A program made the position numbers and the translations under genes. 64,000 nucleotides of DNA. Origin: a virus. Taxonomy: Duplodnaviria; Caudoviricetes. Numbering within the stretch: the stretch's first letter is position 1; the number at the start of each line of letters is the position of its first letter. The notes under the pieces were generated by a model. That model saw only the letters and a list, made by a program, of their open reading frames with translations, was not told where the DNA came from and did no database searches. The stretch spans positions 22,688 through 86,687 of the IMG/VR virus record IMGVR_UViG_3300031994_000058; one strand, given 5' to 3'. Below are positions 2,581 through 18,617 of this stretch, piece after piece.

Positions 2581-2581
2581 T

Positions 2582-3003: not shown

Positions 3004-3005
3004 AA

Positions 3006-3619: not shown

Positions 3620-3849
3620 TATACACCACCTCCATTATTGTATACATTGATCACAACTGGCTTAGAATTTCTTGAGACAAGACTAAATATAATTGCCGCG
3701 CACGAGAGAATGCAAGCGCCAATTAAAAGCTTTTGTCCATTTTCGCCAGTCGTTGCATTATCAACCTTCTTTTTTACTTCCTTCTTAACAGCCTTAGATG
3801 ATTTCTTAGCAACCTTCTGGCATACAGAATCGATGAGTTCATCAAACAT
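3619..3849 (-). CDS. Small single-pass membrane protein
   Basis: Hydrophobic LLIGACILSCAAIIFSLV; GGAGG RBS. Confidence 0.65.
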   Translation of the reverse strand: MFDELIDSVCQKVAKKSSKAVKKEVKKKVDNATTGENGQKLLIGACILSCAAIIFSLVSRNSKPVVINVYNNGGGV

Positions 3850-3864
3850 ACAAATTTCCTCCTT

Positions 3865-4080
3865 TTAGTCCATGTGAAAATCCGTGTCTTCAAACAAATA
3901 CCACCCATAACACCATGAGGGAAGATAATCAGTATCGAAATATAAATCATCACCCTCAATATACCACTCGATCATTCCGTTGTCACCAAATTCGTATATA
4001 TAGCCTATCTCATATGTATCGAGTAGCGATGTAAATTCTCGAAAAGCGAGAAGACTATCATCCGTTTTGGCAAATATCAA
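3865..4080 (-). CDS. Hypothetical protein, probable paralog of 4096..4335
   Basis: T(D/E)DSL...Y.Y...G..EWY pattern shared with neighbour. Confidence 0.6.
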   Translation of the reverse strand: MIFAKTDDSLLAFREFTSLLDTYEIGYIYEFGDNGMIEWYIEGDDLYFDTDYLPSWCYGWYLFEDTDFHMD

Positions 4081-4095
4081 TTGGAGTACCTCCTT

Positions 4096-4335
4096 TTAGA
4101 ATATTCGCTCTCGTCTTGCAAGTCCCGGCTCCATGCCGATACCGTTGCTAACGCCGATATGAAACGCCTCAAGTATAAAAGGTGGAATCTTTATAAAGCA
4201 TAAATTATCGCATAAAACATACCATTCGAGAACACCACCAATGTTCTTATACATATAAGGAGCATCTATGTATTCGAGCCAGTCAGACAATTTACGAATA
4301 ACTTTTAACGAATCTTCCGTCCTAAGAATCGTCAT
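4096..4335 (-). CDS. Hypothetical protein
   Basis: See neighbour; tiles on the minus strand. Confidence 0.6.
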   Translation of the reverse strand: MTILRTEDSLKVIRKLSDWLEYIDAPYMYKNIGGVLEWYVLCDNLCFIKIPPFILEAFHIGVSNGIGMEPGLARRERIF

Positions 4336-4337
4336 TT

Positions 4338-4526
4338 TTAATCCTTCCTTTCAACCTCCTCATTAAGAAGTCTTTCGAGACATTTATGACAATCACCCTC
4401 GCATTCGTTCGCATATATACCAGTAATGATGTCCCGCATACAGGTTGTTCCATTAGTCGCGTTATCGCTAAGCATATACAAGATGTCAATCATCGCCATC
4501 TTGTTCAGCTTGTCTCTCCATTTCAT
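4338..4526 (-). CDS. Small Cys-containing hypothetical protein
   Basis: Probable start MKWRDKL; CEGDCHKCLERLLNEEV. Confidence 0.5.
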   Translation of the reverse strand: MKWRDKLNKMAMIDILYMLSDNATNGTTCMRDIITGIYANECEGDCHKCLERLLNEEVERKD

Positions 4527-4719
4527 CCTCGCATACCCCTTTCTTTTCTTTACTATAAGCGCAAATATCAATCCAGTTCGAATAATCCCAACAGTCGAAA
4601 CACTCAAATACATCACCAGGTCCGGCATGATAACAATTGCTACAATTTCGTTCCATATTCATTGCTCCATTCAGAAAATAAAAAATGAGGGCAGTTGTAA
4701 AACCACCCTCGACAAACCC

Positions 4720-5196
4720 TTAATCCTTAGCGAACATCTCTTCGACATCTGCCATCATGGATACCGCAATGTCAGGCTCTTCAATGATCGCAACATCGAG
4801 TTCGTCGCCATTGTTAAACACATAAGCGCCGTTCCCGTTATCGAGATTCATCATCATAGCACCGGTAATTGCGTCCAATCTTTGACCAGATTCAGTTACT
4901 AAGTCATGGGGTTCTGTCGGTCCGGCATACGGCCCCCATTCATTGTTCTCCACGAAAAACTTTATCGTTCCCGGAGACTGCTTCTGAATCTTCTCGCCAA
5001 GTGCACGAGCATGGATCTCCATACCATTTGTCTCGCCTCGACTCTCGCCAACCTTATACGCGATTGCTCCAGTAGCAACACTACCAAGAACCGTAGTTCC
5101 GATAGCCGTCAATACCGGATGCTTCTGCGTCCAGTTGTAAGTCTTGACAATGGTATCCTCGACCTTGTCTCTTACTTTCTTCAGCTTTTCATTCAT
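4720..5196 (-). CDS. Hypothetical protein with N-terminal hydrophobic helix
   Basis: Start MNEKLKK after GGAGG, downstream of promoter 5239-5265; terminator hairpin 4687-4710 follows. Confidence 0.7.
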   Translation of the reverse strand: MNEKLKKVRDKVEDTIVKTYNWTQKHPVLTAIGTTVLGSVATGAIAYKVGESRGETNGMEIHARALGEKIQKQSPGTIKFFVENNEWGPYAGPTEPHDLVTESGQRLDAITGAMMMNLDNGNGAYVFNNGDELDVAIIEEPDIAVSMMADVEEMFAKD

Positions 5197-5241
5197 ATTA
5201 TGTACCTCCAAAATATAAAATTTTTCAGGCATCTCTGCCTA

Positions 5242-5766
5242 TTAAGAGCCCTGTCTCGTTTGCGATTCGAATAATGCATCAAACTGACGAATCTCGTAAT
5301 GCGAGAACCAAAACATCTTATTTTGTTTGTTCTTTTCCCATTGATTCTCGTCGTTTGTAAGACCCAAACCGAAGTAGCACTGATATTCCTGTTCTCTTAA
5401 TTTTCCAACGGCCGTTCGTAAGTAGTATCTATATCGAGAAGGATCGTTTGACGATAAATATAAAAAGTCCATGCCTGGCAAGCTATCCATAACTACAAAT
5501 GGTTTGTCTTCGGTGACTATACCATCATGAATATCAACCCGACGAACGAGGTTGCAGTTATGAATGAGCCACATTTGCGTTCTATAAAAACCAATCCACG
5601 ATCCATACACATCTCCGTCACCAATCCATCCGTGAAAGTCATCGACCTCGATTGGTGCTCCGTTTTCATCATAAATATAATCCGGATGGTGCATAAGCGT
5701 CGCATCGGTTTCCGGGTCGATAAGCTTTCCGTTCCTTACGATAATAGCTCCATAAATATCAGACAT
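5242..5766 (-). CDS. Hypothetical protein
   Basis: Start MSDIYG after AAAAGGAGG. Confidence 0.6.
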   Translation of the reverse strand: MSDIYGAIIVRNGKLIDPETDATLMHHPDYIYDENGAPIEVDDFHGWIGDGDVYGSWIGFYRTQMWLIHNCNLVRRVDIHDGIVTEDKPFVVMDSLPGMDFLYLSSNDPSRYRYYLRTAVGKLREQEYQCYFGLGLTNDENQWEKNKQNKMFWFSHYEIRQFDALFESQTRQGS

Positions 5767-5783
5767 GACAATCCGCCTCCTTT

Positions 5784-6221
5784 TTAGAATGGGCATGTAT
5801 GCTCTTGACAATATCCCTCATACGGTGGATCTAAACATGTTTCGGTTTCACCAAGCCTTTCATAACACGGAGTTCCATATATAACAGGATCGCCTTTTAT
5901 ATACGTATCGATAACCGTCTTCTTCTGAACCGTTAAGAAGTTATACGCATCACGAGTCATTTCCTTCACTCGGCATCCAGGCATGAGCATGTCGAGCGCA
6001 TCAAGTCTAAGATGAACCTCGTCTATAATTGTCATGACCTCATCGACAATTTGCGGGTCGTCCATCCATCCGCATTCAATGATCGTCTCGTCCTCTGAGA
6101 TATATTCGGACCCATTTAGACAACATCCACAAGGTTGCTGTGCTCCAAGTAATTCGTTGTATTTGAACACACATGTTTTACAAGGATCTTGTCCGTCATA
6201 AACCGGTTCCATAAATATCAC
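5784..6221 (-). CDS. Cys-rich hypothetical protein
   Basis: CKTC...CGCC and terminal C..C..C. Confidence 0.6.
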   Translation of the reverse strand: MIFMEPVYDGQDPCKTCVFKYNELLGAQQPCGCCLNGSEYISEDETIIECGWMDDPQIVDEVMTIIDEVHLRLDALDMLMPGCRVKEMTRDAYNFLTVQKKTVIDTYIKGDPVIYGTPCYERLGETETCLDPPYEGYCQEHTCPF

Positions 6222-6299
6222 TCCTTTTTAATTGGTAAAAAGAAAAGGGCCCTGTTTAAGAGCCCAATTCCTTCTAAGTCATTTTAACCTCCATTTTAC

Positions 6300-6524
6300 T
6301 TAGAGCGCATTGGTCGGGATGTACGCTGGATATAATGCCTCCTTGATCACGCCATTAAGCGCCAGTTCGAGACTATCGACCTCCGCGAGAAGATCTTCGT
6401 TAAAATCCTCGCCATCTTCGAGAATCTTAGGAAGTCCCTCTGCAAGTTTCATTGCCTCTTTTACGTGGCTGCATACGCACTTCCAAGAAGTTGCATCCTT
6501 CACATCCATAATCTTAATAACCAT
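6300..6524 (-). CDS. Hypothetical protein in a promoter-gene-terminator cassette
   Basis: Promoter 6562-6588, GGAGG, terminator 6247-6265. Confidence 0.7.
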   Translation of the reverse strand: MVIKIMDVKDATSWKCVCSHVKEAMKLAEGLPKILEDGEDFNEDLLAEVDSLELALNGVIKEALYPAYIPTNAL

Positions 6525-6591
6525 ATGTATACCTCCAAATATAAATTTTTGGCTTTCATGCCTATTAGGAGGGCTGTTTCGTTTGCGAGAC

Positions 6592-6810
6592 TTACTTTCT
6601 TACTTGCGACTGAATATAAGCGCTTTTAAGAAGATAGGAAACAAAAATGTTATGAAAGGCATTCGCAATATCGTCCGCAGATCGATGCTCCTTCATTCGA
6701 GTTTTTGTTTGCTCAAGCTCCTTGACGAATTCTTCATTCATCTGCTTCATGAGTTCACCATATGCATTCGTGATGCCGGCAGAAGCGACAGCGTTCGTGT
6801 AATCGTCCAT
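6592..6810 (-). CDS. Hypothetical protein
   Basis: Start MDDYT after GGAGG. Confidence 0.6.
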   Translation of the reverse strand: MDDYTNAVASAGITNAYGELMKQMNEEFVKELEQTKTRMKEHRSADDIANAFHNIFVSYLLKSAYIQSQVRK

Positions 6811-6815
6811 AAATA

Positions 6816-7259
6816 TCAATCCTCCCAATGCATAATAAGTCTATCAAGATACCATCGAGCTTTTTTCAGATCCTCAACGCCATTCTTATGCTTGGCTCTA
6901 AGAACATATTTTACAATATTCCCAAAGCGAAATCCATTGGCGCCGTTGTATTCCTTTCCGAATTCGTCAATAATATCAATGACTTCGAATTTTCCAGAGT
7001 TGTAATGAGACGGATGGTTTACATTATCCGACTCATTTTCTAGAGCTGGACGAATATCAATGAGATCGATAAGATTACGTCCTTCCATTTCGCCATCAAG
7101 AATGATACCATTAGTGTATATGTAGCCCTCTCTTGTACAGTTTCTGATGTAATTGATGACCGATTCATATATAACATCATAGCTGTCTTTGTCGTCGAAC
7201 ATTATTGTCGGTTCGAATGAGTTCTTTACAGGTCCTTCGAACTTGAATTTAACTTTCAT
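6816..7259 (-). CDS. DUF3310-like protein with N-terminal extension (second copy)
   Basis: DNVNHPSHYNSGKFEVIDII...GNIVKYVLRAKHKNGVEDLKKARWYL. Confidence 0.85.
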   Translation of the reverse strand: MKVKFKFEGPVKNSFEPTIMFDDKDSYDVIYESVINYIRNCTREGYIYTNGIILDGEMEGRNLIDLIDIRPALENESDNVNHPSHYNSGKFEVIDIIDEFGKEYNGANGFRFGNIVKYVLRAKHKNGVEDLKKARWYLDRLIMHWED

Positions 7260-7946
7260 TTATTCTACTCCTTTTACTTTCTGCTTTGCACGATACTTCC
7301 AGTTATATACCTGGCTTGTCGAAATTCCAAAATAATTAGCAACGGCATAAGACTTTTCGCTACCCCATTTGTCAAGCCAAAGAGCCGCCTCCTGAGTAGT
7401 TCTGAATAATGGATCGCCTCTCTTGACCCCTCTACGAAGACGAGTTTCCAAATCCATAATGCATTTCTTTGCATCAACCATCGGTTTCTCCGATTCTGTT
7501 ACTGTGGTTACTACTGGTTCGCTTTCTACAACCGATTCTTTAGGCTTGACATACACAGTAGTATCGTCAACGAACAACGATCTCTGAATGAGACCGATAA
7601 TTGTTTCTGTGTCATTTTCTGTGAAAGAATATAAATACTTCGTGAATTCATTAGCGCCCTTGGTCGTGATCTGAGAGATTACCATTTTTGATTCTACATC
7701 GCTAAGCGGATTGTAGAAGCAAATATCAGTGTTTCTCGTATCAGAGGACGTAATATTCGTCGTAAGGGGAACACAAGAAATCATGCTTCCGTTTACACGA
7801 ACAATAAAATAGGGCCTAGAACCATTGAGCGCCTTGTGATTCGCAGCACGAAGGGCGTCCGTCACTGCCTGTTCTTCGCCACAGAACCAAACCTGCCCCT
7901 TCTTAAATTTCTGAATATTAAATTCATACTTCTTGTACATACGCAA
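7260..7946 (-). CDS. PemK/MazF-like domain fused to a C-terminal HTH
   Basis: KKGQVWF...GSRPYFIV...CVPLTT...SKMVISQITT matches the PemK/MazF pattern; YAVANYFGISTSQVYNWKYR is HTH-like. Confidence 0.6.
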   Translation of the reverse strand: MRMYKKYEFNIQKFKKGQVWFCGEEQAVTDALRAANHKALNGSRPYFIVRVNGSMISCVPLTTNITSSDTRNTDICFYNPLSDVESKMVISQITTKGANEFTKYLYSFTENDTETIIGLIQRSLFVDDTTVYVKPKESVVESEPVVTTVTESEKPMVDAKKCIMDLETRLRRGVKRGDPLFRTTQEAALWLDKWGSEKSYAVANYFGISTSQVYNWKYRAKQKVKGVE

Positions 7947-7955
7947 ATCCTCCTT

Positions 7956-8168
7956 TTATTTACCATTACGTACGTCTTTGAGATAACAATCCGTATGCCA
8001 GTAACAATCATGCCCTGACATAACGTAGTCGTCTTCGTTAATGTTTATTTCCTTGTGGCAGCTCATGCATTCTTTTTTATAATCGTTTTGTGTATCCATT
8101 CGTCCTAGTAGTCCGGCAGCAATGATACACAGCACAATGAATATAAAGAATGTTGACTGTTTTTTCAT
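7956..8168 (-). CDS. Small membrane-anchored zinc-finger protein
   Basis: Start MKKQSTF; TM segment then CMSC...H.DC. Confidence 0.6.
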   Translation of the reverse strand: MKKQSTFFIFIVLCIIAAGLLGRMDTQNDYKKECMSCHKEININEDDYVMSGHDCYWHTDCYLKDVRNGK

Positions 8169-8455
8169 TTTGTTACTCCTCTTTGTTGTATACGGTTCAT
8201 CTGTCTGTTCTGTTTTATGTTTACCCACGTTTGAATCGCTTTGTCAGACAAACCGTAAATATAAATGAGATTGGAGACTGCTATTAGCACATCCCCAATC
8301 TCTTCTTCCATATGAGACCCATTCTCCGTCCCTCGAATCTGTTTCGAGATACATTGAATCAGTTCGCTGCATTCTTCTGTTGCGTTTGTTGCCGTATCAA
8401 TTTCTCCAAAATAATCGCAAGATGCCTTGATGAGTTCTTTGTTAATATCAATCAT
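8165..8455 (-). CDS. MazG-like NTP pyrophosphohydrolase
   Basis: Start MIDINK; EECSELIQ...EEEIGDVLI acidic motif. Confidence 0.8.
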   Translation of the reverse strand: MIDINKELIKASCDYFGEIDTATNATEECSELIQCISKQIRGTENGSHMEEEIGDVLIAVSNLIYIYGLSDKAIQTWVNIKQNRQMNRIQQRGVTK

Positions 8456-8966
8456 TATTCTGTTGTGTCTCCTTTTCAACTTTATACAGTCGATGCGGAA
8501 GAACGTCTGTAATCTTCCATTCTCCAGATGCTGTCTTGTACGGAACGAAAAGCTCGGCATCTGTCCATCCGAACTCTCTCCATTCCTGTGGAATATCATT
8601 GCTTTCCGGATATGGCAGATGCTCGGTGACAGATCGCTCAAGCATGAACTCAGCGAATGTAACATAGCCCTCATCCTTAATCGCCTGCACGATATCGCAC
8701 ATTGAGGTATACGCCGATGCCTGAGTCTCAAACGTCATCGGAACGAGGTTGAAGTCATAGTCAAGTTTAACATCCTCATCGACGTTCTCGACAGCGCCTT
8801 CTCCTTTGAACTTCGTCGTGCAAATATCAAGAGACTCTGCAACTCTGTCACAAACGCCCTTAACTGTTGCTTTGATTTGATCCTTTCTCTCGACGCCGAG
8901 ATTTGCAACATATCCTACAGCAGCACCAAGACCAAACAGAATAAGACTTTTTCTTGTGTTATTCAT
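8448..8966 (-). CDS. Hypothetical protein, N-terminal hydrophobic helix
   Basis: GYVTFAEF...FGWTD resembles the C-terminal domain of 11534..12214. Confidence 0.6.
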   Translation of the reverse strand: MNNTRKSLILFGLGAAVGYVANLGVERKDQIKATVKGVCDRVAESLDICTTKFKGEGAVENVDEDVKLDYDFNLVPMTFETQASAYTSMCDIVQAIKDEGYVTFAEFMLERSVTEHLPYPESNDIPQEWREFGWTDAELFVPYKTASGEWKITDVLPHRLYKVEKETQQNND

Positions 8967-8980
8967 AACATAATCCTCCT

Positions 8981-9382
8981 TTAATCAATGTTATTCATTT
9001 TACAGAAAGCAAAACGCTCACTATATGAATGAAGATCGTGCAAATGCTCGTTCAACGTATTCTCAATGAGATCGAGCAGTTCATCTTTTTCGGGTGTCCT
9101 TTCCAAAATATGAAAATCAATGACTACCACGGAATACCCTTCGTTGAGTTTAAGCCAGTCTTTAACGTCATTGAGTGTTGTGTTGTTGGTAATCGACGCA
9201 GCGATGAGAAATTCGTCCTCGAGACCGCGCCGAATATCATCAATTGAACTCTCTGGCGTGAAACCTCTATACCCAAGATAATCGCCCACTGCAAAACCGA
9301 AATCTTCGAAAAGACCGAGTTTAAGTCCTTTCGCAGTGTCCGGAACCAGGTCGATAATATTATGCTTTTCTACATACATCAT
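8981..9382 (-). CDS. Hypothetical protein
   Basis: Start MMYVEKH after AAAGGAGG. Confidence 0.6.
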   Translation of the reverse strand: MMYVEKHNIIDLVPDTAKGLKLGLFEDFGFAVGDYLGYRGFTPESSIDDIRRGLEDEFLIAASITNNTTLNDVKDWLKLNEGYSVVVIDFHILERTPEKDELLDLIENTLNEHLHDLHSYSERFAFCKMNNID

Positions 9383-9411
9383 AACAATTTCCTCCTTTGA
9401 AAATATAAAAC

Positions 9412-9534
9412 TTACCAACAGAAATGTCCCACAAGTAAACCAATACCAAAAGGAACGCCGAAGAGAATGACATATGCGAGAATTCGTGCAATAATATCAG
9501 TAATACTAATTTCTGGAAGTTTATCAAATTTCAT
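9412..9534 (-). CDS. 40-aa membrane peptide (below ORF-track cutoff)
   Basis: MKFDKLPEISITDIIARILAYVILFGVPFGIGLLVGHFCW; fills the gap between flanking genes. Confidence 0.55.
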   Translation of the reverse strand: MKFDKLPEISITDIIARILAYVILFGVPFGIGLLVGHFCW

Positions 9535-9537
9535 ATC

Positions 9538-9831
9538 TTACGCTCCAATCTTCAGAACTTCGTAATCAAGCCCTTCTGTAAGGGGCTCGAGCATTGCTTT
9601 GAACTCGGCATCAGAATAACTCTTCAGCTCTTTCCAGTTGAACCAGCGCTTTGTAGGAATGGGCTCCCACATAACGCCATTTACACGTACATTCAGCGCA
9701 TCCTTAAGAATCATATCCATATTATTTACCTCCTCAGATTCGGTTCGATTTCTATCGGCTCTCTCGCTAAGAAGCTCGATAGTCCTGTTCACATTGTCAT
9801 CGTTATAATCCTGATAAGTCTTAAAACTCAT
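9538..9831 (-). CDS. Hypothetical protein
   Basis: GGAGG RBS. Confidence 0.6.
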   Translation of the reverse strand: MSFKTYQDYNDDNVNRTIELLSERADRNRTESEEVNNMDMILKDALNVRVNGVMWEPIPTKRWFNWKELKSYSDAEFKAMLEPLTEGLDYEVLKIGA

Positions 9832-9848
9832 TCGTTTGCCTCCTCGAG

Positions 9849-10040
9849 CTATTCATTAAACTCTTTGCAGCAATCTGTGCAAAGCTCATATGTTTTCTTT
9901 CCGAAATATCCATCGGTAAGGTTCCATGATCCTTGGGTAATGGTGTTAAGTCCCTTAACCTTTACATTGGATCCTTGTCGATTTACCTCATAGAGGTCGA
10001 AGAATTGTCCGCATCGGTCACACTTCGCCGCTTGTGCCAT
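9849..10040 (-). CDS. Small zinc-finger protein
   Basis: MAQAAKCDRCG...ELCTDC. Confidence 0.65.
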   Translation of the reverse strand: MAQAAKCDRCGQFFDLYEVNRQGSNVKVKGLNTITQGSWNLTDGYFGKKTYELCTDCCKEFNE

Positions 10041-10384
10041 TAGAATTCCTCCTTCGGACATCTTTTAATAGTCTGATAAGAAGCGTACGGTTTATCATAG
10101 CTACCATAAGGATAGCGCCGTCTTACAGTGTCTTTTCCGTAGATACTTTCCTCAACAATTCTCGAAATACAATCCTGAATGCCTCGACGAACCTCTTCAG
10201 GAATGCATTCTTGCTTATCGATCATCGGCAAAATATCACGAAGAAACGCCACGTCTGTTTCATCACCATCAGTGAGTTCAAGCACCGTTGCAAGATTACC
10301 GAGAATGTTTCTAATGGCAGCGTTCAGACGGACATCATGATCATCGTTACGCTTCTCTGTATACTTAACAAAATTCTCCATCAT
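10040..10384 (-). CDS. Hypothetical protein
   Basis: AAAGGAGG RBS. Confidence 0.6.
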   Translation of the reverse strand: MMENFVKYTEKRNDDHDVRLNAAIRNILGNLATVLELTDGDETDVAFLRDILPMIDKQECIPEEVRRGIQDCISRIVEESIYGKDTVRRRYPYGSYDKPYASYQTIKRCPKEEF

Positions 10385-10406
10385 ATTAATATTCCTCCTT
10401 TAAATA

Positions 10407-11030
10407 TCAATAAATGAGATTGATTGTCTTCGCGGTATTACGGCTGAACTTCGAGTATGTAATGCGAACCAACGCACCAGCATACAAAGAACACCATGTT
10501 CCACGATCAATGTTAAATTGACGAAGCTCTCCTGTCGCATCGTTCATAACTGTAACATAACATCTGCACTCTCGACGAGTAATTTTTTCGTTTTCTTTAA
10601 GTCCCACATCGACAAAAGCAGGCATCGAGATTTCCTGATTTGGACCATAGGTATTTGAACGCTTCAAATTTCGCATAGGAACCCATTTCTTAATCTCGTA
10701 ATAATACTTGGTTGCATAGACAGGCTTCTCTGCGTAGGCGGTAAAACCATGCTCGTCCTTGCCAGTAGGAACCTTCTCCATCTCCTTAAACGTCCATTCA
10801 GTGCTGATAACTCTCGCGCCAGACGGAGCAGTCCATCCCGATTCCTTAACCATCTTCAGTTCTGACACTGTGACATTAGTTTCCCATCCAAGATTACGAA
10901 TCTCACCAGTGATTTCGATCGGCTGAGAATCCTTGATGAGATAAGCGAGACCGCCTGCGAGAACTCCGCAGATAGCCGTAGCAACCTTGTGCTCCTTTAC
11001 AAAGCTTACGATATTACCAAATGTACTCAT
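10407..11030 (-). CDS. Membrane-anchored hypothetical protein
   Basis: N-terminal TM (VATAICGVLAGGLAYLI) then beta-rich domain. Confidence 0.65.
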   Translation of the reverse strand: MSTFGNIVSFVKEHKVATAICGVLAGGLAYLIKDSQPIEITGEIRNLGWETNVTVSELKMVKESGWTAPSGARVISTEWTFKEMEKVPTGKDEHGFTAYAEKPVYATKYYYEIKKWVPMRNLKRSNTYGPNQEISMPAFVDVGLKENEKITRRECRCYVTVMNDATGELRQFNIDRGTWCSLYAGALVRITYSKFSRNTAKTINLIY

Positions 11031-11084
11031 AATAACTTCCTCCTTTTAGTCCGTGAGTGTTTCCTACAAAAAGAAAAAAGGAAA

Positions 11085-11188
11085 GGATGACCGAGCGGTC
11101 TTCAAAACCGCGTCTCCCGCCAGATTGACCAGCGGGCGTGTTACTCTTACCATACCATTTACGTCCCTGTCAATTCAGGAAGTCATCC
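11085..11188 (-). ncRNA. Promoter-driven tRNA-like structured small RNA (A)
   Basis: Closing stem GGATGAC/GTCATCC; arms TTCCTG/CAGGGA, CCCGC/GCGGG and GCGGT-TTTGAAG-ACCGC; U-tract at 11068-11079; promoter at 11192-11218; no convincing minus-strand ORF. Confidence 0.6.
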
Positions 11189-11280
11189 ATTCCATTAAGG
11201 CGGCTGTTTATTTTGCGAGTCGTCACTCTCATAGAGAGGGGCGTGTGGTATCGTGTCTGAAATCAGACTTTTTGCGAGTT

Positions 11281-11511
11281 TTATTCGCCGTTTACATACT
11301 CCTCGTATGAAATATAATCGTCGCCGTATTCCTTTGCGTCATCTTCGTCATACACGATGTCGATGTTTACTTCCGTCGGATCGATTCGTTCATCTGCGCA
11401 AAAGTCCTCGAACAACGTAATAGCCTCGTCTTCGGTCTTTGCGCAAAACTGAGTTCCATCTGGCCGGTCATCAATCTCCCACGAAAACTCATAGGTTTTG
11501 AACTTATCCAT
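11281..11511 (-). CDS. Acidic hypothetical protein
   Basis: Start MDKFK after GGAGG. Confidence 0.65.
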   Translation of the reverse strand: MDKFKTYEFSWEIDDRPDGTQFCAKTEDEAITLFEDFCADERIDPTEVNIDIVYDEDDAKEYGDDYISYEEYVNGE

Positions 11512-11533
11512 ATTATTTAACCTCCATTTTGAT

Positions 11534-12214
11534 TTAAATAGCAACCGGCTCCGGCAAGTCAATGATCCAAAGACCACTCATCGGAGCTCTTTTAACCGTA
11601 ATCTCAAAGTTCTTGAGATTGTCTTCGTTCCAACCCCACTTCTGTAAGATTGAATTGTTTCGCCTGTCGATGCCTTTCGCATACTCGCCACAAGCATCGT
11701 AATACTCATTGATGGAGCAGCGACCATATTCACAAATATATTCGACAATATAATTCTTAACACTTTCAGCATCGGCATATACCATCGGAATGTTCTGGAA
11801 TCCTGTCAGATAACTTGTCCGTCCATATGTAACGTTCTGTCCGAGTGGCTGATTCTGAGGCTGACGAGTGAGAGCGCTATAGTTTGTACGAGACACTCCA
11901 ACACCAAGCTTGTTCTGTCCGGTGTTAATCTTCGTATCGCCATACAGCGCCATGTCGATAGCGGCCTTTGATGCGTTCGCAACACCATCGATTACCGCAG
12001 GGAGCAACACACCAGTGATGACGAAAGCAGCTACATCCGTGGGATTTCTTCCCTGGAGAAACGTTGACTTGATTTTTCCCCAGAGTCCTGCATTCTTGGG
12101 TTTGGCTGCATCCGAGAGAATAGGACGAGGAATCTCTCGGTGTTTCTCAGCTTCTGCCTGAGCATCCTTGCTTACTTGTGAGTTGGCATACGGGTCGATC
12201 TTATGTTCTGCCAT
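11534..12214 (-). CDS. Conserved-looking phage hypothetical protein
   Basis: EYGRCSINEYYDACG...KWGW...IIDLPEPVAI; AAGGAGG RBS. Confidence 0.7.
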   Translation of the reverse strand: MAEHKIDPYANSQVSKDAQAEAEKHREIPRPILSDAAKPKNAGLWGKIKSTFLQGRNPTDVAAFVITGVLLPAVIDGVANASKAAIDMALYGDTKINTGQNKLGVGVSRTNYSALTRQPQNQPLGQNVTYGRTSYLTGFQNIPMVYADAESVKNYIVEYICEYGRCSINEYYDACGEYAKGIDRRNNSILQKWGWNEDNLKNFEITVKRAPMSGLWIIDLPEPVAI

Positions 12215-12253
12215 TTTGAATACCTCCTTATGGTTGTAAAAAATTTAAAGAAC

Positions 12254-12329
12254 GATGTAAATGACAGGATTCAAACCTGCAATCTATTGCGTTTCAGCAA
12301 TCGTGTTCCCATAACACTTCATTTACATC
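12254..12329 (-). ncRNA. tRNA-like cloverleaf RNA (B) with a 6-nt anticodon loop
   Basis: Acceptor GATGTAAATG/CATTTACATC; D arm GTGT-TATGGGA-ACAC; ATTGC-TGAAAC-GCAAT; variable AGATT; T arm GCAGG-TTTGAAT-CCTGT; no CCA. Confidence 0.7.
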
Positions 12330-12368
12330 ATTCCTACTATAGCGGTTGTAGAATTTGCGAATCACAGC

Positions 12369-13220
12369 TTACCGGTAACTGTGAAATATCGGATCGGCGT
12401 GAAGGTTAATCTTTAAACATGGAATCTCCGTATCCGGTACAAGCGCTGCATCAACAAGATTATCAACGTTAATGAGACCACTCTCGTTAATATCCCAATA
12501 GAACATATCGCCGATGTCTCTGTTTTCAGTAACACCTCTACCATTGCCAGTATCGACAGCAATCTCGTTTAGATCGGCAAGAATCTCGTTCAGACTTACC
12601 TGATCGCCATAATTCAGACGACTGTTGATGCGATTAAATACCGCCTTAACGTCATCAATCTTCGCGACAAATGGTACATTAGTATAAGGTGCTAAGAAGA
12701 TGCTGTACTGAGTATTGATCCCGACATATTCTACGGCTTTCTTATCTGGCGGATTCTTATCGACCTGATCCTGAGCAACCTTCTGGTTGATGAAGCTCAT
12801 CTTCTTTTCACCAACAACTTCCTCGGTCTTTTTCTGGAATTCCTTGAGACTCATATCAGCAATTGTGTAAGCCGCAGACAGAGCCACCTGACGCTTATCC
12901 GAAATATAATCAGACCCGATAATTGCTGCTGCTGAAAGAGCAAAGGAAAGTCCGACACCCCAATACGCAGGGATTACAGCCTTTACGGTTTCGATGGGCG
13001 TGAGTGTAATATCATCAATGTTCGTCACGCTTCCGTCTTCCGATCGATCGGCTGCTTTCTCCGCCTTAGCATTCTTGATACGAAGGTCAGCATCGTCCTT
13101 CTGTTTGATTGCCCAGATAATGGTTCCAAACATTCCGCTGATGCCAAGCGCCGTGAGAATTTTGGGACTATGCTTGACAAGTACTTTCGTCCCACTCTGC
13201 AAGATTTCGTTTACTGCCAT
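12369..13220 (-). CDS. DUF6353-like phage protein
   Basis: KHSPKILTALGISGM...IIGSDYIS.KRQVALSAAY pattern. Confidence 0.7.
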   Translation of the reverse strand: MAVNEILQSGTKVLVKHSPKILTALGISGMFGTIIWAIKQKDDADLRIKNAKAEKAADRSEDGSVTNIDDITLTPIETVKAVIPAYWGVGLSFALSAAAIIGSDYISDKRQVALSAAYTIADMSLKEFQKKTEEVVGEKKMSFINQKVAQDQVDKNPPDKKAVEYVGINTQYSIFLAPYTNVPFVAKIDDVKAVFNRINSRLNYGDQVSLNEILADLNEIAVDTGNGRGVTENRDIGDMFYWDINESGLINVDNLVDAALVPDTEIPCLKINLHADPIFHSYR

Positions 13221-13266
13221 TTTGATTTCCTCCTTGTGGTTGTGAAAAATGAAAAAGATAAAGAAC

Positions 13267-13310
13267 GATGTAAAAGGTGGGATTTGAACCCACTACATTT
13301 CATTTACATC
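13267..13310 (-). ncRNA. tRNA minihelix-like RNA (C): acceptor stem plus T arm
   Basis: GATGTAAA...GTGGG-TTCAAAT-CCCAC-C-TTTTACATC; flanks shared with element B. Confidence 0.6.
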
Positions 13311-13317
13311 ATTCCTA

Positions 13318-13701
13318 CTATGGGAGTTGTTTTGTTTGCGAGAATGGCAGTACTTTGCCTTTCCAACCATCATATCGTTCTTTATCTTTCTCAAATTCTT
13401 TCCGCACCTTTCCAAGAACATCTTCGAGAGATTCCTCGCTATTATGCGGATCATCGCCAGCATTATAAAAACTATATGCGTCAGTCATTCCGAATTCAAA
13501 TCCGCTACACCAAGGGAATAGACGAAATCGGAATCTGGGTCTCTTGTAGAATTGAGACCCAAGGACGATGTCTTCGTGTTTTAGAATTGCAAACCGTCCA
13601 TCATTAACCTTTAGCTTTTTACACGCGTGATAGTACCCTTTTGAATATCCAGAGACATACGCTTGAAATTGAAGTCTAGATTTAAGTTTCTCAAACATCA
13701 T
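13318..13701 (-). CDS. Hypothetical protein
   Basis: Start MMFEK after GAGGAGG; ends in TAG. Confidence 0.55.
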   Translation of the reverse strand: MMFEKLKSRLQFQAYVSGYSKGYYHACKKLKVNDGRFAILKHEDIVLGSQFYKRPRFRFRLFPWCSGFEFGMTDAYSFYNAGDDPHNSEESLEDVLGKVRKEFEKDKERYDGWKGKVLPFSQTKQLP

Positions 13702-14119
13702 CGTCCTCCTCGAGTGGTTCGTCGATAATGGCATCCATGGTGGAGAAAATAAGGCGAAGAATATCTTCTACCTTTCGCATAATTCGACGATTCGGGAAAT
13801 CATAAACGGTCTCCTTATCGTAAATGTTTGCGGCAATAAACTCAACCCAGCAGCCTTTTGCTCTCCACCATTTGTCGTAAAAATATACAACGTCGGCTTC
13901 TGCTAGTTTTTGGATGGATGCTCCAAGATACCATAGACGAGGGGCATTTAATGGGGCATTCTCGTGTTTAATAGTTTGAATAAGTTCGAGTTCGTCGGTC
14001 TCCTTAAGTCGCTCTTCATTTGTAAGGTCCTCTTTCAGAATCTTAAGAGCTTTACTCATATCTTCCTGTACTTCGTTGTCGGGTCGGCCATTCATTTTTA
14101 AACTGATAAACGCTTTCAT
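13691..14119 (-). CDS. Nucleoside 2-deoxyribosyltransferase-like (DUF4406-type) protein
   Basis: AFISLKMNG...LWYLGASIQKLAEADVVYF...W..AKGCWVE. Confidence 0.7.
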   Translation of the reverse strand: MKAFISLKMNGRPDNEVQEDMSKALKILKEDLTNEERLKETDELELIQTIKHENAPLNAPRLWYLGASIQKLAEADVVYFYDKWWRAKGCWVEFIAANIYDKETVYDFPNRRIMRKVEDILRLIFSTMDAIIDEPLEEDDDV

Positions 14120-14132
14120 TTTGATTTCCTCC

Positions 14133-14489
14133 TTAGTTAAAATCGACGTATTTTCTAATCATTTCGCAGATAAAGTCTTTGTCAACATCACAATCATTGT
14201 GGTAATTAGCTTCCTGCTCTTTGAATTTGTCAAATTCTTCTTTTGTCGCTCCACCATAGCACATAGCGACGAATAGGTATTGAAGAATCGCTGACGAGTG
14301 ATAAGGATACTCGACATGTAGCGGATTCTCATCATCGATATAAATCGTGAGCTCATCAATCGGAAGACCAACGCCTAATTCTCGCTCAATTGCGAGTGAG
14401 ATGTCATTGTTTTCTGGAACTTCAATTTGTTTGCAATCAAGCCGGTTTCTGTCAAGACTATAATAGTCAACAAGAACTTCTACTTTCAT
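14133..14489 (-). CDS. Hypothetical protein
   Basis: GGGAGG RBS. Confidence 0.6.
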   Translation of the reverse strand: MKVEVLVDYYSLDRNRLDCKQIEVPENNDISLAIERELGVGLPIDELTIYIDDENPLHVEYPYHSSAILQYLFVAMCYGGATKEEFDKFKEQEANYHNDCDVDKDFICEMIRKYVDFN

Positions 14490-14543
14490 ATCTGATTACC
14501 TCCCATTTTGATTTGGACAAAAAAAAAGAAAAGAGGAGAGGCA

Positions 14544-14822
14544 TTACGCCTCCGCCTCCTCTTCAGGTTCTATCTCAGTTTCCTCTTCCTCCTTCTTCAG
14601 CTCTGTTGTCACAGCCTTTCGAATCGCCATGATGCCTTCGATGCAGTCATTAGCGCCATTCATCGCCACTCCTCCCGCAGCAAACAGCAATGCGAAATAA
14701 CCAACCGCCTCGACGGGGTTAGTAATCTTTGCATCACCGTAAAGCTTGCTGCCGAGCTTGTTGGCGATAATAATGCCGCCAAGACCTGCTGTTGCATTAA
14801 TAACAACCTTCCAAGTGTTCAT
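14544..14822 (-). CDS. Small membrane protein with acidic tail
   Basis: Two hydrophobic helices, E-rich end; stop lies inside terminator GAGGCGTAATGCCTC. Confidence 0.7.
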   Translation of the reverse strand: MNTWKVVINATAGLGGIIIANKLGSKLYGDAKITNPVEAVGYFALLFAAGGVAMNGANDCIEGIMAIRKAVTTELKKEEEETEIEPEEEAEA

Positions 14823-14878
14823 AACAATACCTCCAAATAAGTAGTAGACTTTTTACAGTCCCTATTAAGAACGTTGTT

Positions 14879-15250
14879 TCATTTGCGAATTCTACCCTTC
14901 TCGTCAAGCCTTGCGATTAAACGTAAAAGTGTCATAACGTCACCATCTGTAAGATTCTCGATAACGCCGTCAGTAATCTGCGTGTCGTAACAAAGATGCC
15001 CTTCCCATGTGACTGATAACTCAAATAAATCCTTATCGGCACCGTGAGAGCCACGTTTCTTAATTACTGACGCTCCGTACTTTGTATCCGGATAGTGAAT
15101 GATGTATGCGAACCCATTGGCGTTATGCCGCGTCTCAACAAAGCACCCAAGCTTATCAAGTTCCATCCACACCTCGGGCTTGAATGGATGTAAAATAGTC
15201 GATAAGGACTGCGGCCAAGATTTAATTTCGATAGGCTTTTCTGTTGTCAT
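14879..15250 (-). CDS. Hypothetical protein
   Basis: YGASVI...SHGADKDLFELSV; GGGAGG RBS. Confidence 0.6.
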   Translation of the reverse strand: MTTEKPIEIKSWPQSLSTILHPFKPEVWMELDKLGCFVETRHNANGFAYIIHYPDTKYGASVIKKRGSHGADKDLFELSVTWEGHLCYDTQITDGVIENLTDGDVMTLLRLIARLDEKGRIRK

Positions 15251-15301
15251 AACATTTTACCTCCCATTTTGATTTGGACGAAAAAAGAAAAAGGAGAGGC
15301 A

Positions 15302-15523
15302 TTACGCCTCATCCTCGGTTTCTGTATACGCTTCTCGGATCGTTTTTGCTGTTTCAGAAGCCAACTCCTTTCCAACTCCATCAGCCTAATTAAGCTTATT
15401 ATAGAGCAGGTATCCACAGATAGCTAGTCCATGCAGACCCAGCATAACAGCGATGCCCCCATAATAATCGCCCTTTGTGTAAGGCTGCTTTGCCCACTCT
15501 CTAAAAGTCATCTTCTTTTTCAT
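15302..15523 (-). pseudogene. Small membrane protein with acidic tail, interrupted by in-frame TAG at 15386-15388
   Basis: MKKKMTFREW...GYLLYNKLN*ADGVGKELASETAKTIREAYTETEDEA; final TAA sits in the same terminator as in 14544 and 17073. Confidence 0.6.
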
Positions 15524-15685
15524 ATTAACTCCTCCTCAAATATGTATATAGGGTTTTCACCTCTATAAGGAGAGCTGTTTCGTTTGTGAGGCGTCACTCT
15601 CGTAGAGATGGGCGTGTAGTATCGTGTCTGGAAACAGACCTTTTGCGAAAAAAGAGGATGGCTGTAAAACCACCCTCGCACGAAA

Positions 15686-16147
15686 TCACATCGTATCGTG
15701 GAAGCACGTGCCGTCTTTGTATGCCATTGATCCAAGATAGTTATCCGGACTATCGACACCCTCGTCGGTGCCAAAGTTCGTTATACAACTATACTCGATT
15801 CCATGATCTTTACAAATCTGGTCCACTTCCTTAAACTTCTCTATAATATCATGCTCAGCCTGTTCCCAGCCAACCTCCTGTTTGATAAGTTCACAAAGTT
15901 CTTCATCATCACACGTTGCATCAGACGAAGGCAAGTCTTTTGCGATATCGAGTTTCGTGACATCGCTAAATTCCTCATCAATCGAATCTGCGGCTTTCTT
16001 AAAGAGTACAATACCGCCGACCGTTACAGCCGTACCGATTGCAATCTTAATCAAGCCACTCTTATGCTCGACGACAAACGTCTTTGCTTTGTCCTTAACC
16101 TCTGATACCTTTTCCTTGAAAGTCTTCTTTTCCTTCTTCTCATCCAT
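15686..16147 (-). CDS. Membrane-anchored acidic hypothetical protein
   Basis: Start MDEKK; TM IAIGTAVTVGGIVLF. Confidence 0.65.
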   Translation of the reverse strand: MDEKKEKKTFKEKVSEVKDKAKTFVVEHKSGLIKIAIGTAVTVGGIVLFKKAADSIDEEFSDVTKLDIAKDLPSSDATCDDEELCELIKQEVGWEQAEHDIIEKFKEVDQICKDHGIEYSCITNFGTDEGVDSPDNYLGSMAYKDGTCFHDTM

Positions 16148-16271
16148 AATGGATTCCTCCTTTAAAGATTTTTGTGGTTTACTTACCATTAAGGCAGGTG
16201 TCCCATTTGCGAGATTTACTGCCATTTTGAAAAAAAAAGGAAAGGACGTTGTGTCCAATCCTTTTTGCGGG

Positions 16272-16652
16272 TTATTTCTTGAGCACCCGCATGCTCTTTA
16301 AGATGTCCTCCGTAAACTCGCCATCCCGCTTCCTTCGAGAAATTTCTATTCTCTCGTCGTTCGTAAGCTTCCGCTTAAGCTCCCAGTGAAATCCGCTCGA
16401 GGGATCGTAATAACACTTTCCCATTCTGTCCTCATGCCGATCCGCCGCACTGCCTCGAACCGTTCTAATAAACTTAACGGTTCCCGTCGCAATAGCAAGC
16501 ACAACCGGTGTGAGTTTCAGAATTGTTTCTGCGTGATCCATAATCCATCTTCCAGCTTCACCAGCCTTGTTCTTAAGCTTCGTCTTCGCATCCGAGAATT
16601 TGTCTCTGAGTTTCTCCATAAAGCTTCTGGTATCATTCACAACAATATTCAT
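16272..16652 (-). CDS. Membrane-anchored hypothetical protein
   Basis: AAGGAGG RBS overlapping promoter 16666-16692; terminator 16244-16256. Confidence 0.65.
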   Translation of the reverse strand: MNIVVNDTRSFMEKLRDKFSDAKTKLKNKAGEAGRWIMDHAETILKLTPVVLAIATGTVKFIRTVRGSAADRHEDRMGKCYYDPSSGFHWELKRKLTNDERIEISRRKRDGEFTEDILKSMRVLKK

Positions 16653-16736
16653 ATAGAACACCTCCTTATTAAGGTGCGTGTTTCATTTGCGAGAAAAAAA
16701 AGGAAAGGGCATTGCGCCCGAATCCTTTATGCGTTT

Positions 16737-16820
16737 TTATTTCTTCTTTTCATCTCGACCACGCATTATAATCGAGATGAAGATTAAGATTACGGCTGCA
16801 ATCAAAAGCATGTCTGCCAT
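16737..16820 (-). CDS. 27-aa membrane peptide
   Basis: MADMLLIAAVILIFISIIMRGRDEKKK; AAGGAGG RBS; terminator 16707-16719. Confidence 0.55.
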   Translation of the reverse strand: MADMLLIAAVILIFISIIMRGRDEKKK

Positions 16821-16991
16821 TTAATCAACCTCCTTTTCCTTTTTCTTGTGAGCGCCGAACATAAATCTCACCAGCGCTATTAGCTCTCGGATAATTAGTA
16901 GCAGCACTACCAACGCTCCGATGAGCAATAATATGCCAGCCAGACCTAAGCCCAGCAAACCAAGCAGAATTCCGGTTAATGTTTCTAACAT
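16821..16991 (-). CDS. 56-aa very hydrophobic membrane protein
   Basis: MLETLTGILLGLLGLGLAGILLLIGALVVLLLIIRELIALVRFMFGAHKKKEKEVD; AAAGGAGG RBS. Confidence 0.65.
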   Translation of the reverse strand: MLETLTGILLGLLGLGLAGILLLIGALVVLLLIIRELIALVRFMFGAHKKKEKEVD

Positions 16992-17072
16992 ACTATTTCC
17001 TCCTTTGCCATATCTTCTATAAGGAGGCGTGTCTAGTTTGCGAGAAAAATATAAAAGAAAAAGGAAGAGGCA

Positions 17073-17354
17073 TTACGCCTCAACCTCCTGTTCTGTCGGA
17101 GTTTCCGTTTCTACCGCCGGTTCTGTCGGAACTTCTTCCGTTTCAGTCCCCGCAACATCTTTCGCTTCGGCTTCAACGACGCCTGGGTCGTCGGGCTTGA
17201 TCGCATCCGTCGGAATCGACACTGCATTACGTCCTTCCAGAGCATTCATGCCCTTGTCCATAATAGCGCCGATAACAATGCCACCAAGACCCATTCCCAT
17301 AGCCTTGAGTCCGGTCTTAGCGATTTTCGTTGCAATACCGCTGAAATTAATCAT
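17073..17354 (-). CDS. Small membrane protein with acidic tail
   Basis: Gly-rich hydrophobic helix, E/T/P-rich tail; stop inside terminator 17067-17081. Confidence 0.7.
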   Translation of the reverse strand: MINFSGIATKIAKTGLKAMGMGLGGIVIGAIMDKGMNALEGRNAVSIPTDAIKPDDPGVVEAEAKDVAGTETEEVPTEPAVETETPTEQEVEA

Positions 17355-17584
17355 ACTTATTCCTCCTTAAAATCCGGGTAGACCTCTCTGGTCTCCTCTA
17401 TAAGGAGAACTGTTTCGTTTGCGAGTCGTCACTCTCATAGAGAGGGGCGTGTAGTATCGTGTCTGGAATCAGACCTTTTGCGAGAAAAAAAGAAAAAACC
17501 TAAACAAGCGGCATAACTTCATCCTAGCAGCATAGCCTTTCGCCGTGCCAAGATTACGTGTTACCCTCTTGTTAGGTTCTTGGT

Positions 17585-17713
17585 TTACTTATTATACATT
17601 CTTACAATTATTGCCATGCCTTTAGTCTCAATCTTGTAATGGTCAAACTTGGTGCTGAATCGCTCGATCAGCTCATAAGCCTGGTCCATCGAAAAAACTG
17701 TAATTGTTAACAT
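17585..17713 (-). CDS. 42-aa hypothetical protein
   Basis: MLTITVFSMDQAYELIERFSTKFDHYKIETKGMAIIVRMYNK; AAAGGAGG RBS; own promoter 17754-17780. Confidence 0.6.
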   Translation of the reverse strand: MLTITVFSMDQAYELIERFSTKFDHYKIETKGMAIIVRMYNK

Positions 17714-17839
17714 AACAATACCTCCTTTAGATATGTATAGGTTTATATTCCTTCTATAATATACCTTGCAAATATTGCGAGGGTGTATTTTACTGCCATT
17801 TTGAAAAAAAGAAGGGCCCTGTTTAAGAGCCCACTTCTT

Positions 17840-18202
17840 TTATTCATAAAGTAAGGCGTCTAGTTCAGCCTTCTCTTCAGCTGTAAGACCTCCGTGAGTT
17901 TTTCTGTAATATAGATAGTTCAATCTATACGTATCATAGCAGTACTGAGCCGCGTCGTTTTGATGCTCCTGAATCCGGATCATCATTTGAAGAAGCCAGT
18001 CGTTGTATTCTCTACTTGACCCGCCAAGCAGAGAATTTACAAACGGCGAGCGTTTCTTCTCTTTGATAATTTGGTTTAGAGTATCCATTTCCGACATAAC
18101 CCAGTCTAATGCATATGATTCACATTGATCAACATACCTACACCAACGTTCGTTTACCTCTTCTACAGTCTTTGCCAGCTTATAGCTTTCCTTATTCAGC
18201 AT
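17840..18202 (-). CDS. Hypothetical protein in cassette
   Basis: Promoter 18215-18241; terminator 17814-17832. Confidence 0.7.
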   Translation of the reverse strand: MLNKESYKLAKTVEEVNERWCRYVDQCESYALDWVMSEMDTLNQIIKEKKRSPFVNSLLGGSSREYNDWLLQMMIRIQEHQNDAAQYCYDTYRLNYLYYRKTHGGLTAEEKAELDALLYE

Positions 18203-18287
18203 AAGACCACCTCCTTATTAAAGCGGGTGTTTAAAATGCGAAAAATTGAGAAGCCCTGTATAAAACACGAGCTTCTCGTCAGTTTTG

Positions 18288-18536
18288 TTAGTCGTCGGAT
18301 TCTTCAGATTCTTCCCAGCCGTACAAATCGCCGATATGTCTCCACTCGGCTTCAAAAGTGGCGTCCATCTTGTCCATGAGGCCTCTGGCCACGTTAAGGC
18401 TCACCTTATCCTGCGCCCAATTCGGCAGGAAGGCGCGTCCATATAACTCTGTAGCCGTCTTCTCGTAGGCCTTGATCAACGCGTCCTCTCGAAGCTTTCG
18501 GAGATCGTTCGCCGTCTTAAATTCTTCCACTTTCAT
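18288..18536 (-). CDS. Hypothetical protein in cassette
   Basis: Promoter 18573-18599; terminator 18248-18277. Confidence 0.7.
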   Translation of the reverse strand: MKVEEFKTANDLRKLREDALIKAYEKTATELYGRAFLPNWAQDKVSLNVARGLMDKMDATFEAEWRHIGDLYGWEESEESDD

Positions 18537-18617
18537 AGTTATACCTCCTTTAAATCTTTGAGACTAACATCTCTATAATAGACATTGTCTAGTTTGCGAG
18601 AAAAAGAATGGCCCTGT

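Follow-up and report, generated by a model that had tools for sequence, protein, structure and literature searches.

Around window positions 11188-11085, the minus strand of a phage genome of the Caudoviricetes carries a short segment with the appearance of a small structured RNA, which raises the question whether this is an RNA in its own right, how it is related to tRNA and what it could do for the phage. The window is the whole analysed stretch of 64,000 nucleotides, and the virus record holding it comprises 86,687 bp and is rated complete. From the letters alone, the segment had been read as a stand-alone tRNA-mimic RNA with arms resembling those of tRNA-Asp, an extra hairpin, its own promoter and its own terminator; this is referred to as the sequence-only reading.

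A closed multi-helix RNA is predicted to form on the minus strand from 11193 to 11080. The 121-nt stretch that was folded has an MFE of -46.3 kcal/mol, compared with -33.0 +/- 3.5 for its shuffles (z = -3.8), and none of 200 shuffles folded as well. The pairings named in the sequence-only reading (GGATGAC/GTCATCC, TTCCTG/CAGGGA and GCGGT-TTTGAAG-ACCGC) and the AGAC segment are all present on that strand. GGATGAC/GTCATCC forms a 7-bp closure of 11188-11182 with 11091-11085, which extends, as had been proposed, to 12 bp with one mismatch (U-U; 11193-11182 with 11091-11080). This closing helix, termed P1, has GGAAUGGAUGAC as its 5′ strand (11182-11193); its 3′ strand, GUCAUCCUUUCC, is preceded by the junction J5/1 (UCG), the two together covering 11080-11094. 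Inside P1, and likewise on the minus strand, P2 is an extra hairpin that ordinary tRNA does not have (11165-11180; UCCUG-AAUUGA-CAGGG). It is followed by the A-rich single strand J2/3 (11156-11164; seven nucleotides, a U8-like U and one further base), which reads ACGUAAAUG in the window and AACAAAAU(G/A/C) in distant homologs. P3 is a degenerate D-arm-like hairpin (11138-11155; GU(AUG)GU / ACAC with the loop AAGAGUA), located in a 27-nt 'linker'. This fifth helix, clear in distant homologs and degenerate in the window clade, is absent from the sequence-only reading. P4 (11116-11136) occupies the position of an anticodon arm and corresponds to the proposed CCCGC...GCGGG arm, of which the pairing could be verified but not the 11-nt loop: the stem has 8 bp, including two G-U pairs, and closes on the 5-nt loop UCAAU. 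AGAC (J4/5; 11112-11115) is the variable-loop equivalent and is identical in all six homologs described below, and the T-arm-like hairpin P5 (11095-11111; GCGGU-UUUGAAG-ACCGC) is nearly invariant.

A tertiary contact between two of the loops is suggestive only. In the window, the P2 loop AUUGAC is complementary over 6 bp to GUCAAU at the P4 loop; in L047 and L060 the complement comprises 4 bp (GUAA/UUAC), and in L046 and L049 the P4 loop is complementary to J2/3 instead (UGUUA/UAACA). Pairing of the A-rich J2/3 with the U-rich tail as the true acceptor stem was also considered and was rejected as driven by composition, without covariation.

Six distinct full-length versions of the element were found, four of them from phages whose neighbouring proteins share 34-39% identity. 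Close relatives were reached via the downstream 207-aa protein, and the distant relatives L046, L047, L060 and L049 via the upstream phrog_4079 protein (34-39% identity) and via the conserved core pattern. L023 carries an identical element and the same leader, but a different, 63-aa gene comes next. A version with 8 substitutions is found in L004, L015, L025 and L043 (50-kb and 85-kb relatives); relative to such a phage, with an 81%-identical downstream protein, 4 of the 8 differences make up two compensatory pairs, in P4 and P3. Between L025 and the window the element is 93.7% identical, compared with 71-84% for the flanking coding DNA. The 20-nt core GACGCGGKUUYGAAGACCGC is unchanged across the phages with phrog_4079 proteins of 34-39% identity.

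The element is conserved independently of the genes around it. In L046, L047, L049 and L060 it has a promoter-like box upstream and a U tract downstream, and it lies at the syntenic site in all of these except L049, where the upstream gene differs as well. The downstream gene is a different one for each copy (207 aa; 63 aa; 66 aa; 30 aa; about 45 aa; a 106-aa HTH_17 gene). Complete genomes carry one copy. The element is missing from the syntenic place in L057 (a 51% relative) and from L024 and L062, and in L059 it is reduced to the closing helix and the same T arm; it is therefore dispensable. A blastn search of a phage collection gave no match. Searches of viral, metagenome and genome collections with exact and loop-anchored DNA patterns returned one known relative as well as L049 and chance matches, and nothing else, and the search for IMG/VR relatives via the 207-aa, DUF6353 and phrog_4079 proteins returned the same 50-kb contig alone. 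The known sequences thus number six, from about three or four lineages, and are rare in current databases, which limits the generality of the family.

The same fold is kept across these homologs. Independent MFE folds of L046, L047, L049 and L060 gave the same five-helix architecture despite very different sequences, and RNAalifold on an unfitted MAFFT alignment recovered the same five helices, with 32 pairs, 20 of them changed on both sides. When the alignment was guided by the structure, 188 of the 195 pair cells were canonical, and both sides had changed in 23 of the 35 pairs; neither value was reached by any of 2000 shuffles, and sliding the registers left about 40-50% pairing. Since the fit to the structure was built into this alignment, the unfitted alignment and the single-sequence folds serve as its independent checks. 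Changes on both sides are found in 10 of the 13 pair columns of P1, in 4 of the 5 pairs of P2 (28/28 cells paired) and in 7 of the 8 pairs of P4 (45/45 cells paired). P3 forms a clean 4-bp stem with the loop AAnGGUA in the distant homologs, and between the window and L025 it shows a compensatory change from G-C to A-U. P1, P2, P3 and P4 hence covary; P5, which reads GCGGG-UUCGAAG-ACCGC in the distant homologs, and AGAC are invariant. Conservation of the pairings in homologs had been proposed as a check of the sequence-only reading, and it holds: the six distinct versions retain five helices by compensatory changes.

The G-U pairs fit the minus strand only and would be A-C mismatches on the plus strand. 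A plus-strand reading had been considered on account of the exact pattern GCGGTTTTGAAGACCGC, whose matches in viral contigs were mostly the reverse complement of the anticodon arms of UCA-anticodon tRNAs. It was rejected because the distant homologs alter the loop, the G-U pairs are specific to the minus strand and the order of the arms is wrong.

The same data bear on the view that the segment is a decaying tRNA pseudogene, an attP-type tRNA fragment, a chance structure without RNA function or a short ORF. The degenerate P3 of the window clade, the relatives without the element and a 28-codon ATG frame running through it in the window and L025 would agree with this. No reading frame is open across all homologs, however, and in L060 each of the six frames is interrupted by stops, which makes the element non-coding; the small ORF, seen in the window and L025 and not preceded by a Shine-Dalgarno sequence, was rejected as a candidate. 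No integrase context was seen. Compensatory changes in four helices over about three or four lineages, and an identity above that of the flanking genes, largely refute this explanation, which is left with a very small probability.

The genes around the element are all on the minus strand and are arranged as short cassettes, each behind a promoter-like box. The box of the element (11192-11218) consists of TCGCA (11218-11214), a 16-nt spacer and TAATGG (11197-11192), the final two G of which double as the opening bases of P1. It belongs to a family of about 28 copies with the consensus TCGCA-N16-T(A/T)AT(A/G)(G/A), which occur exclusively on the minus strand of the early region, ahead of early genes. 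Boxes of the TCGCA-N16-TAATAG type span window positions 5265-19340 (genome positions 1655-21591) on this strand, and a small hairpin at the presumed +1 opens most of the leaders behind them. A sigma-70 scan listed neither the box of the element nor its sister boxes, and the box geometry is different from the sigma-70 -10 arrangement. Among the proteins encoded by the phage, neither a T7-type RNA polymerase nor a sigma-70 region 2 was found. In several cassettes (e.g., at window positions 16692, 18241 and 18884) the Shine-Dalgarno sequence begins immediately 3′ of the box, and therefore transcription must start at the end of the box.

At the other end of the element, P1 runs straight into a U tract (UUUUUUCUUUUU; 11068-11079), a candidate leaky intrinsic terminator. 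In all six homologs a P1 of 10-13 bp is directly followed by 7-11 U within 9-12 nt, the arrangement of stem and immediate U tract expected of a terminator. The element was not listed by the terminator scan because its 'loop' is a four-helix domain of 90 nt. The stretch from 11067 to 11028 contains the leader, the Shine-Dalgarno sequence AAGGAGG (11045-11039) and the ATG (11030) of the downstream 207-aa gene; no separate promoter box was found between the U tract and this Shine-Dalgarno sequence. The promoter-like box and the U tract proposed from the sequence accompany all six copies regardless of their flanking genes.

Two cassettes upstream of the element share its outer helix at their start and close on a similar U-rich tract, so that GGAAUG(G)AUG.../...CAUC(C/G)UUYC, a U-rich tract and a Shine-Dalgarno sequence are common to three neighbouring cassettes. 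The first of the two, element A, is a tRNA-like RNA of 71 nt (12256-12326, minus strand) that scores 50.9 bits against the Rfam tRNA family. Relatives of it are located at L023:378-448, L025:3752-3823, L046:2173-2244, L048:95-165, L057:1878-1951, L059:829-901 and G001:134-206. Its 'anticodon' loop is 6 nt long throughout these relatives (UGAAAC, UAAAAC, UGAAAU, AUACCC, UUACCC). The stems covary, and the T stem does so freely, in contrast to the invariant T arm of the element studied here. Pairing of leader and trailer lengthens its acceptor stem to about 14-15 bp, followed by a U tract. Element A is probably a conserved non-decoding tRNA-like RNA. Element B (13269-13307, minus strand) is a mini-helix of closing helix and T arm only; in the 81% relative L025 (about 2800-2870) it is a plain hairpin (GGAAUGAUG-UAUUUCG-CAUUGUUCC). 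A mini version with the T arm of the studied element is found at L059:2851-2920, and interiors unrelated to any of these are enclosed by the same helix at L047:976-1058 and L057:2875-3010. The common design of closing helix, U tract and leader may mean that part of the function lies in the helix and the U tract alone.

Two genes between these RNAs encode a phrog_4079 protein (11534-12214, minus strand) and a DUF6353 protein (12369-13220, minus strand). Both are syntenic with the tRNA-like RNAs, and this synteny is kept in relatives of only 34-51% protein identity. The phrog_4079 protein has 442 representatives at E <= 1e-3 and no sequence relative in the PDB; in its AF2 model (pLDDT 68) the C-terminal domain is confident, and Foldseek gave weak winged-helix-like matches for it (E >= 0.15).

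The relationship to tRNA was assessed arm by arm. ARAGORN called no tRNA on the element or its homologs and no tmRNA in the window. Rfam contained no family matching the element, searched as 151 nt, at the gathering score or at E <= 10, and the homologs L046, L047, L049 and L060 were likewise unmatched. The sole local Rfam match was that of a plus-strand hairpin to the anticodon arm of tRNA-Sec (13.7 bits, E 2.7). A pseudogene call or none had been predicted for tRNA finders, and none was obtained. The nucleotides of the tRNA core and elbow are nevertheless retained, and this is clearest in the distant homologs: U8, A14, G18 G19, A21, purine 26/A44 and U54 U55 C56 R57 A58. In L046, L047, L049 and L060 both a D-like arm (4-bp stem, loop AAnGGUA) and a T-like arm (loop UUCGAAG) are formed, and P3 is preceded by U-N (U8, N9) and followed by a purine (position 26). 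Both arms are weakened in the window clade (UUUGAAG; AAGAGUA), where C56 is replaced by U and the G18 position is degenerate; this degenerate D-like arm and the G18 and C56 positions weaken the elbow. A61 stands opposite G53 or U53 in place of the usual C61.

Two covariance models connect the element with its tRNA-like neighbours. Model R1, built from the element, matches the tRNA-like elements nearby with E values from 8e-5 to 7e-3 in an arm-by-arm alignment, a score that is owed in part to the shared closing helix and U tail. Model R2, built from the tRNA cores alone of those neighbours, matches the L047 copy at E 3e-5 and the other copies weakly (E 0.2-0.4), with L060 and L049 directly after the tRNA-like elements and the copy of the window fourth. 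Since the two models detect each other, the element is, as judged from sequence comparison, derived from tRNA.

It lacks essential parts of a working tRNA. There is no 5-bp anticodon stem whose 7-nt loop carries U33 and a conserved triplet: P4 has 6-8 bp and a loop of 4-9 nt that varies in sequence and differs in every clade (UCAAU, GUUACA, GUAA, GACUAUGUU). The anticodon arm of tRNA-Asp with its GTC, central to the sequence-only reading, therefore has to be given up. In place of an acceptor stem, P2 and J2/3 put about 24 nt between P1 and U8, and 3-4 nt separate P5 from the 3′ strand of P1. The ends are paired through the 10-13 bp of P1, without a free CCA end. With neither an anticodon nor a free acceptor end, the RNA cannot decode. 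The proposals that it serves as a decoy for anticodon nucleases or as a ligand of T-box or stringent-response sensors have become unlikely, because each of these depends on an anticodon loop or a free 3′ end, if not on both, and here no anticodon loop is conserved and the ends are paired without a free NCCA. Of the tRNA-mimic idea, the general part stands, namely a conserved, structured, non-coding and tRNA-related RNA, and the Asp identity does not.

For the same reasons there is hardly any likelihood that the element is an unusual but functional tRNA precursor that is charged after processing, e.g., a suppressor or frameshifter tRNA. It does have an acceptor-like 7-bp stem, in the window with a U-U mismatch at the -1/73 position, as well as the T arm and the AGAC variable segment, and it adjoins the tRNA-like gene with 50.9 bits. 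Against this, no homolog is called by ARAGORN or the Rfam tRNA model, the P4 loop of 4-9 nt holds no conserved triplet, U8 is preceded by a 24-nt insertion, the T stem is separated from the 3′ strand by 3-4 nt, and G1 is not conserved. Most likely, judging by the sequences compared, the element represents a new tRNA-mimic RNA family that matches no catalogued RNA family.

We propose, at a probability of about 50%, that the element mimics the tRNA shape and engages a factor recognising the elbow and T arm of tRNA, and that P1 together with the U tract forms a leaky terminator. The element would constitute an early phage gene that is autonomous and yields a tRNA-descended non-coding RNA of about 115-125 nt. 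Transcription would start at the end of the TCGCA-N16-TAATGG box, so that the first bases of the RNA already form P1. The predicted fold would place P1 at the position of the acceptor stem, P2 as an extra hairpin, P3 as D-arm-like, P4 as a structural arm and P5 as T-arm-like. Acting in trans, the RNA would present a tRNA-shaped ligand to a factor that reads the elbow and the T arm, possibly a host enzyme of tRNA processing or modification, a defence protein directed at tRNA or a protein of the phage itself. Leaky termination at P1 and the U tract would end the transcript, and read-through would supply the downstream gene. Four covarying helices and a 20-nt invariant core, independent of the flanking genes, argue for an autonomous RNA whose whole shape is important.

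The main rival is an explanation in cis, which is regarded as somewhat unlikely. In it, the element is a 5′ leader in which P1 and the U tract act as a promoter-proximal attenuator or terminator, as a stabiliser of the mRNA 5′ end or as a 3′ end-protector of transcripts reading through from upstream, and the interior is at most a processing signal, serving RNase P or RNase Z in the manner of tRNA punctuation or t-elements. The three neighbouring cassettes with their common outer helix, U-rich tract and Shine-Dalgarno sequence speak for it, as does the exchange of their interiors, which range from a complete tRNA-like fold and a mini-helix to a plain hairpin and to hairpins of unrelated kinds. 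A minimal substrate of RNase P or RNase Z consists of an acceptor-like helix and a T arm, and the mini versions (window 13269-13307; L059:2851-2920) resemble one. The passage from the U tract to the downstream Shine-Dalgarno sequence without a separate promoter box also fits a leader. A terminator or stabiliser, however, needs neither the covarying P2, P3 and P4 nor the 20-nt invariant T-arm core, and each homolog has a different gene downstream. RNase P acts poorly on substrates with a fully paired 5′ end, such as the one seen here, and a cut by this enzyme a few bases past the start would be of little use.

Among known RNAs, canonical tRNA (RF00005) and element A share with the studied element the order of the arms, the 4-nt variable segment, the UUCGA T loop and the core nucleotides. 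They differ in that the element lacks an anticodon loop, has a hairpin and an A-rich strand of 7 nt ahead of U8, places 3-4 nt between the T stem and the 3′ strand, carries A61 for C61, and pairs its ends over 10-13 bp without CCA. The tRNA cluster of phage T4 encodes the stable small RNAs species 1 and 2 (rnaC/rnaD) next to tRNA genes, whose function is, to our knowledge, still unknown. They resemble the element as phage-encoded small RNAs beside tRNA genes; the T4 RNAs are excised from the transcript of the cluster, in contrast to the units described here, each of which lies behind a promoter-like box of its own. Plant mitochondrial t-elements and the mascRNA of MALAT1 are tRNA-shaped, non-decoding parts of longer transcripts and are recognised by RNase P or RNase Z via the acceptor/T-arm domain. 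A tRNA-shaped module without decoding function is common to them and the element, but here the 5′ end is fully paired, and the additional conserved P2 and P4 are not needed for such signals. The tRNA-like structures of plant RNA viruses are also viral tRNA mimics; they are 3′-terminal and aminoacylated at a free CCA end, in contrast to the paired ends and U tail of the element.

Y RNAs (YrlA; Yrn1) are likewise non-decoding, with a stem formed by the ends and a tRNA-like domain with T and D arms, and some are encoded by phages (PMC4201824). That the element is an RNA of this type (Deinococcus Yrn1/YrlA), binding the Ro60/Rsr ring of the host and thereby redirecting or blocking RNA decay by Rsr-PNPase, is improbable. 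The architecture is similar, with the ends in a long stem and internal T and D arms. In Yrn1 in particular, the closing stem takes the acceptor position and the 'anticodon' loop comprises 6 nt (PMC4201824), a loop length shared by element A, and YrlA RNAs are carried by phages. In YrlA, by contrast, the closing stem is at the anticodon position, and here it is at the acceptor position. Y RNAs are defined by binding to Ro60/Rsr and are encoded next to rsr, the known YrlA genes lying within 4 kb of it (PMC4201824), whereas this phage has no TROVE/Ro60 gene. The TROVE search covered the complete record with positive controls, and neither a CCA-adding enzyme nor RtcB was found in the phage. No Y-RNA family was matched in Rfam, even at E <= 10. 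The sequence of P1 differs in every clade, and as it is not conserved, no fixed Ro-binding site or conserved Ro-binding helix is visible.

The proposed tRNA-shape mimic would be of interest beyond this locus. The tRNA genes of phages are commonly interpreted as codon supplements, or as substitutes for tRNAs that host defences have cleaved. In this phage lineage, tRNA-derived RNAs unable to decode are kept, with a core and T arm under strong purifying selection. They are located in the earliest expressed region, each behind a promoter-like box of its own. Together, these features point to mimicry of the tRNA shape as a function in itself in a DNA phage, for which Y RNAs and the tRNA-like structures of RNA viruses are comparable cases. 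The new RNA family comes with a covariance model and a secondary structure that can be tested, and it offers an entry to a tRNA-elbow reader during infection.

A broader version of the proposal is unlikely. According to it, this phage group would possess a small arsenal of closed, non-decoding tRNA mimics that are expressed first in infection, under phage-specific promoters, and bind host factors reading the shape of tRNA and not its anticodon, comprising the five-helix RNA, the neighbouring tRNA-like RNA with the 6-nt loop and a third kind in G001. Their targets, to be neutralised or hijacked, would be a tRNA-directed defence nuclease, RNase P/RNase Z or an RNA-decay machine of the Rsr type. 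If true, this would be a new RNA-based strategy of counter-defence or host takeover. The third kind of closed tRNA-like RNA lies behind the same promoter-like box at G001:36937-37011 (minus strand; locus L071). Its parts are a closing helix, a D arm and a 7-bp arm whose loop has 5 nt, along with AGAC, a T arm, a spacer of GGGG and a U tract; P2 is absent.

Some further observations were made in the vicinity of the element and elsewhere in the window. Upstream of the box of the element, a 59-nt insertion with two small hairpins (11221-11279, minus strand) lies between two ACTCGCAAAA repeats; it is found in the window and L023 and is missing from L004 and L025. In the 76-aa gene upstream of the element (11281-11511), a TGG codon of the window corresponds to an in-frame TAG in L025 (about 4600-4610). 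Furthermore, the phage encodes an endolysin with GH25 and SH3_3 domains, which suggests a Gram-positive host. An RT-18 RNA motif (41071-41151, minus strand; 59 bits, above the gathering score) was identified directly upstream of a reverse transcriptase of 357 aa (RVT_1; 39986-41059, minus strand), and the two are possibly parts of a diversity-generating retroelement. They are followed by genes for a small crAss001_48-like protein and the GH25 and SH3_3 endolysin.
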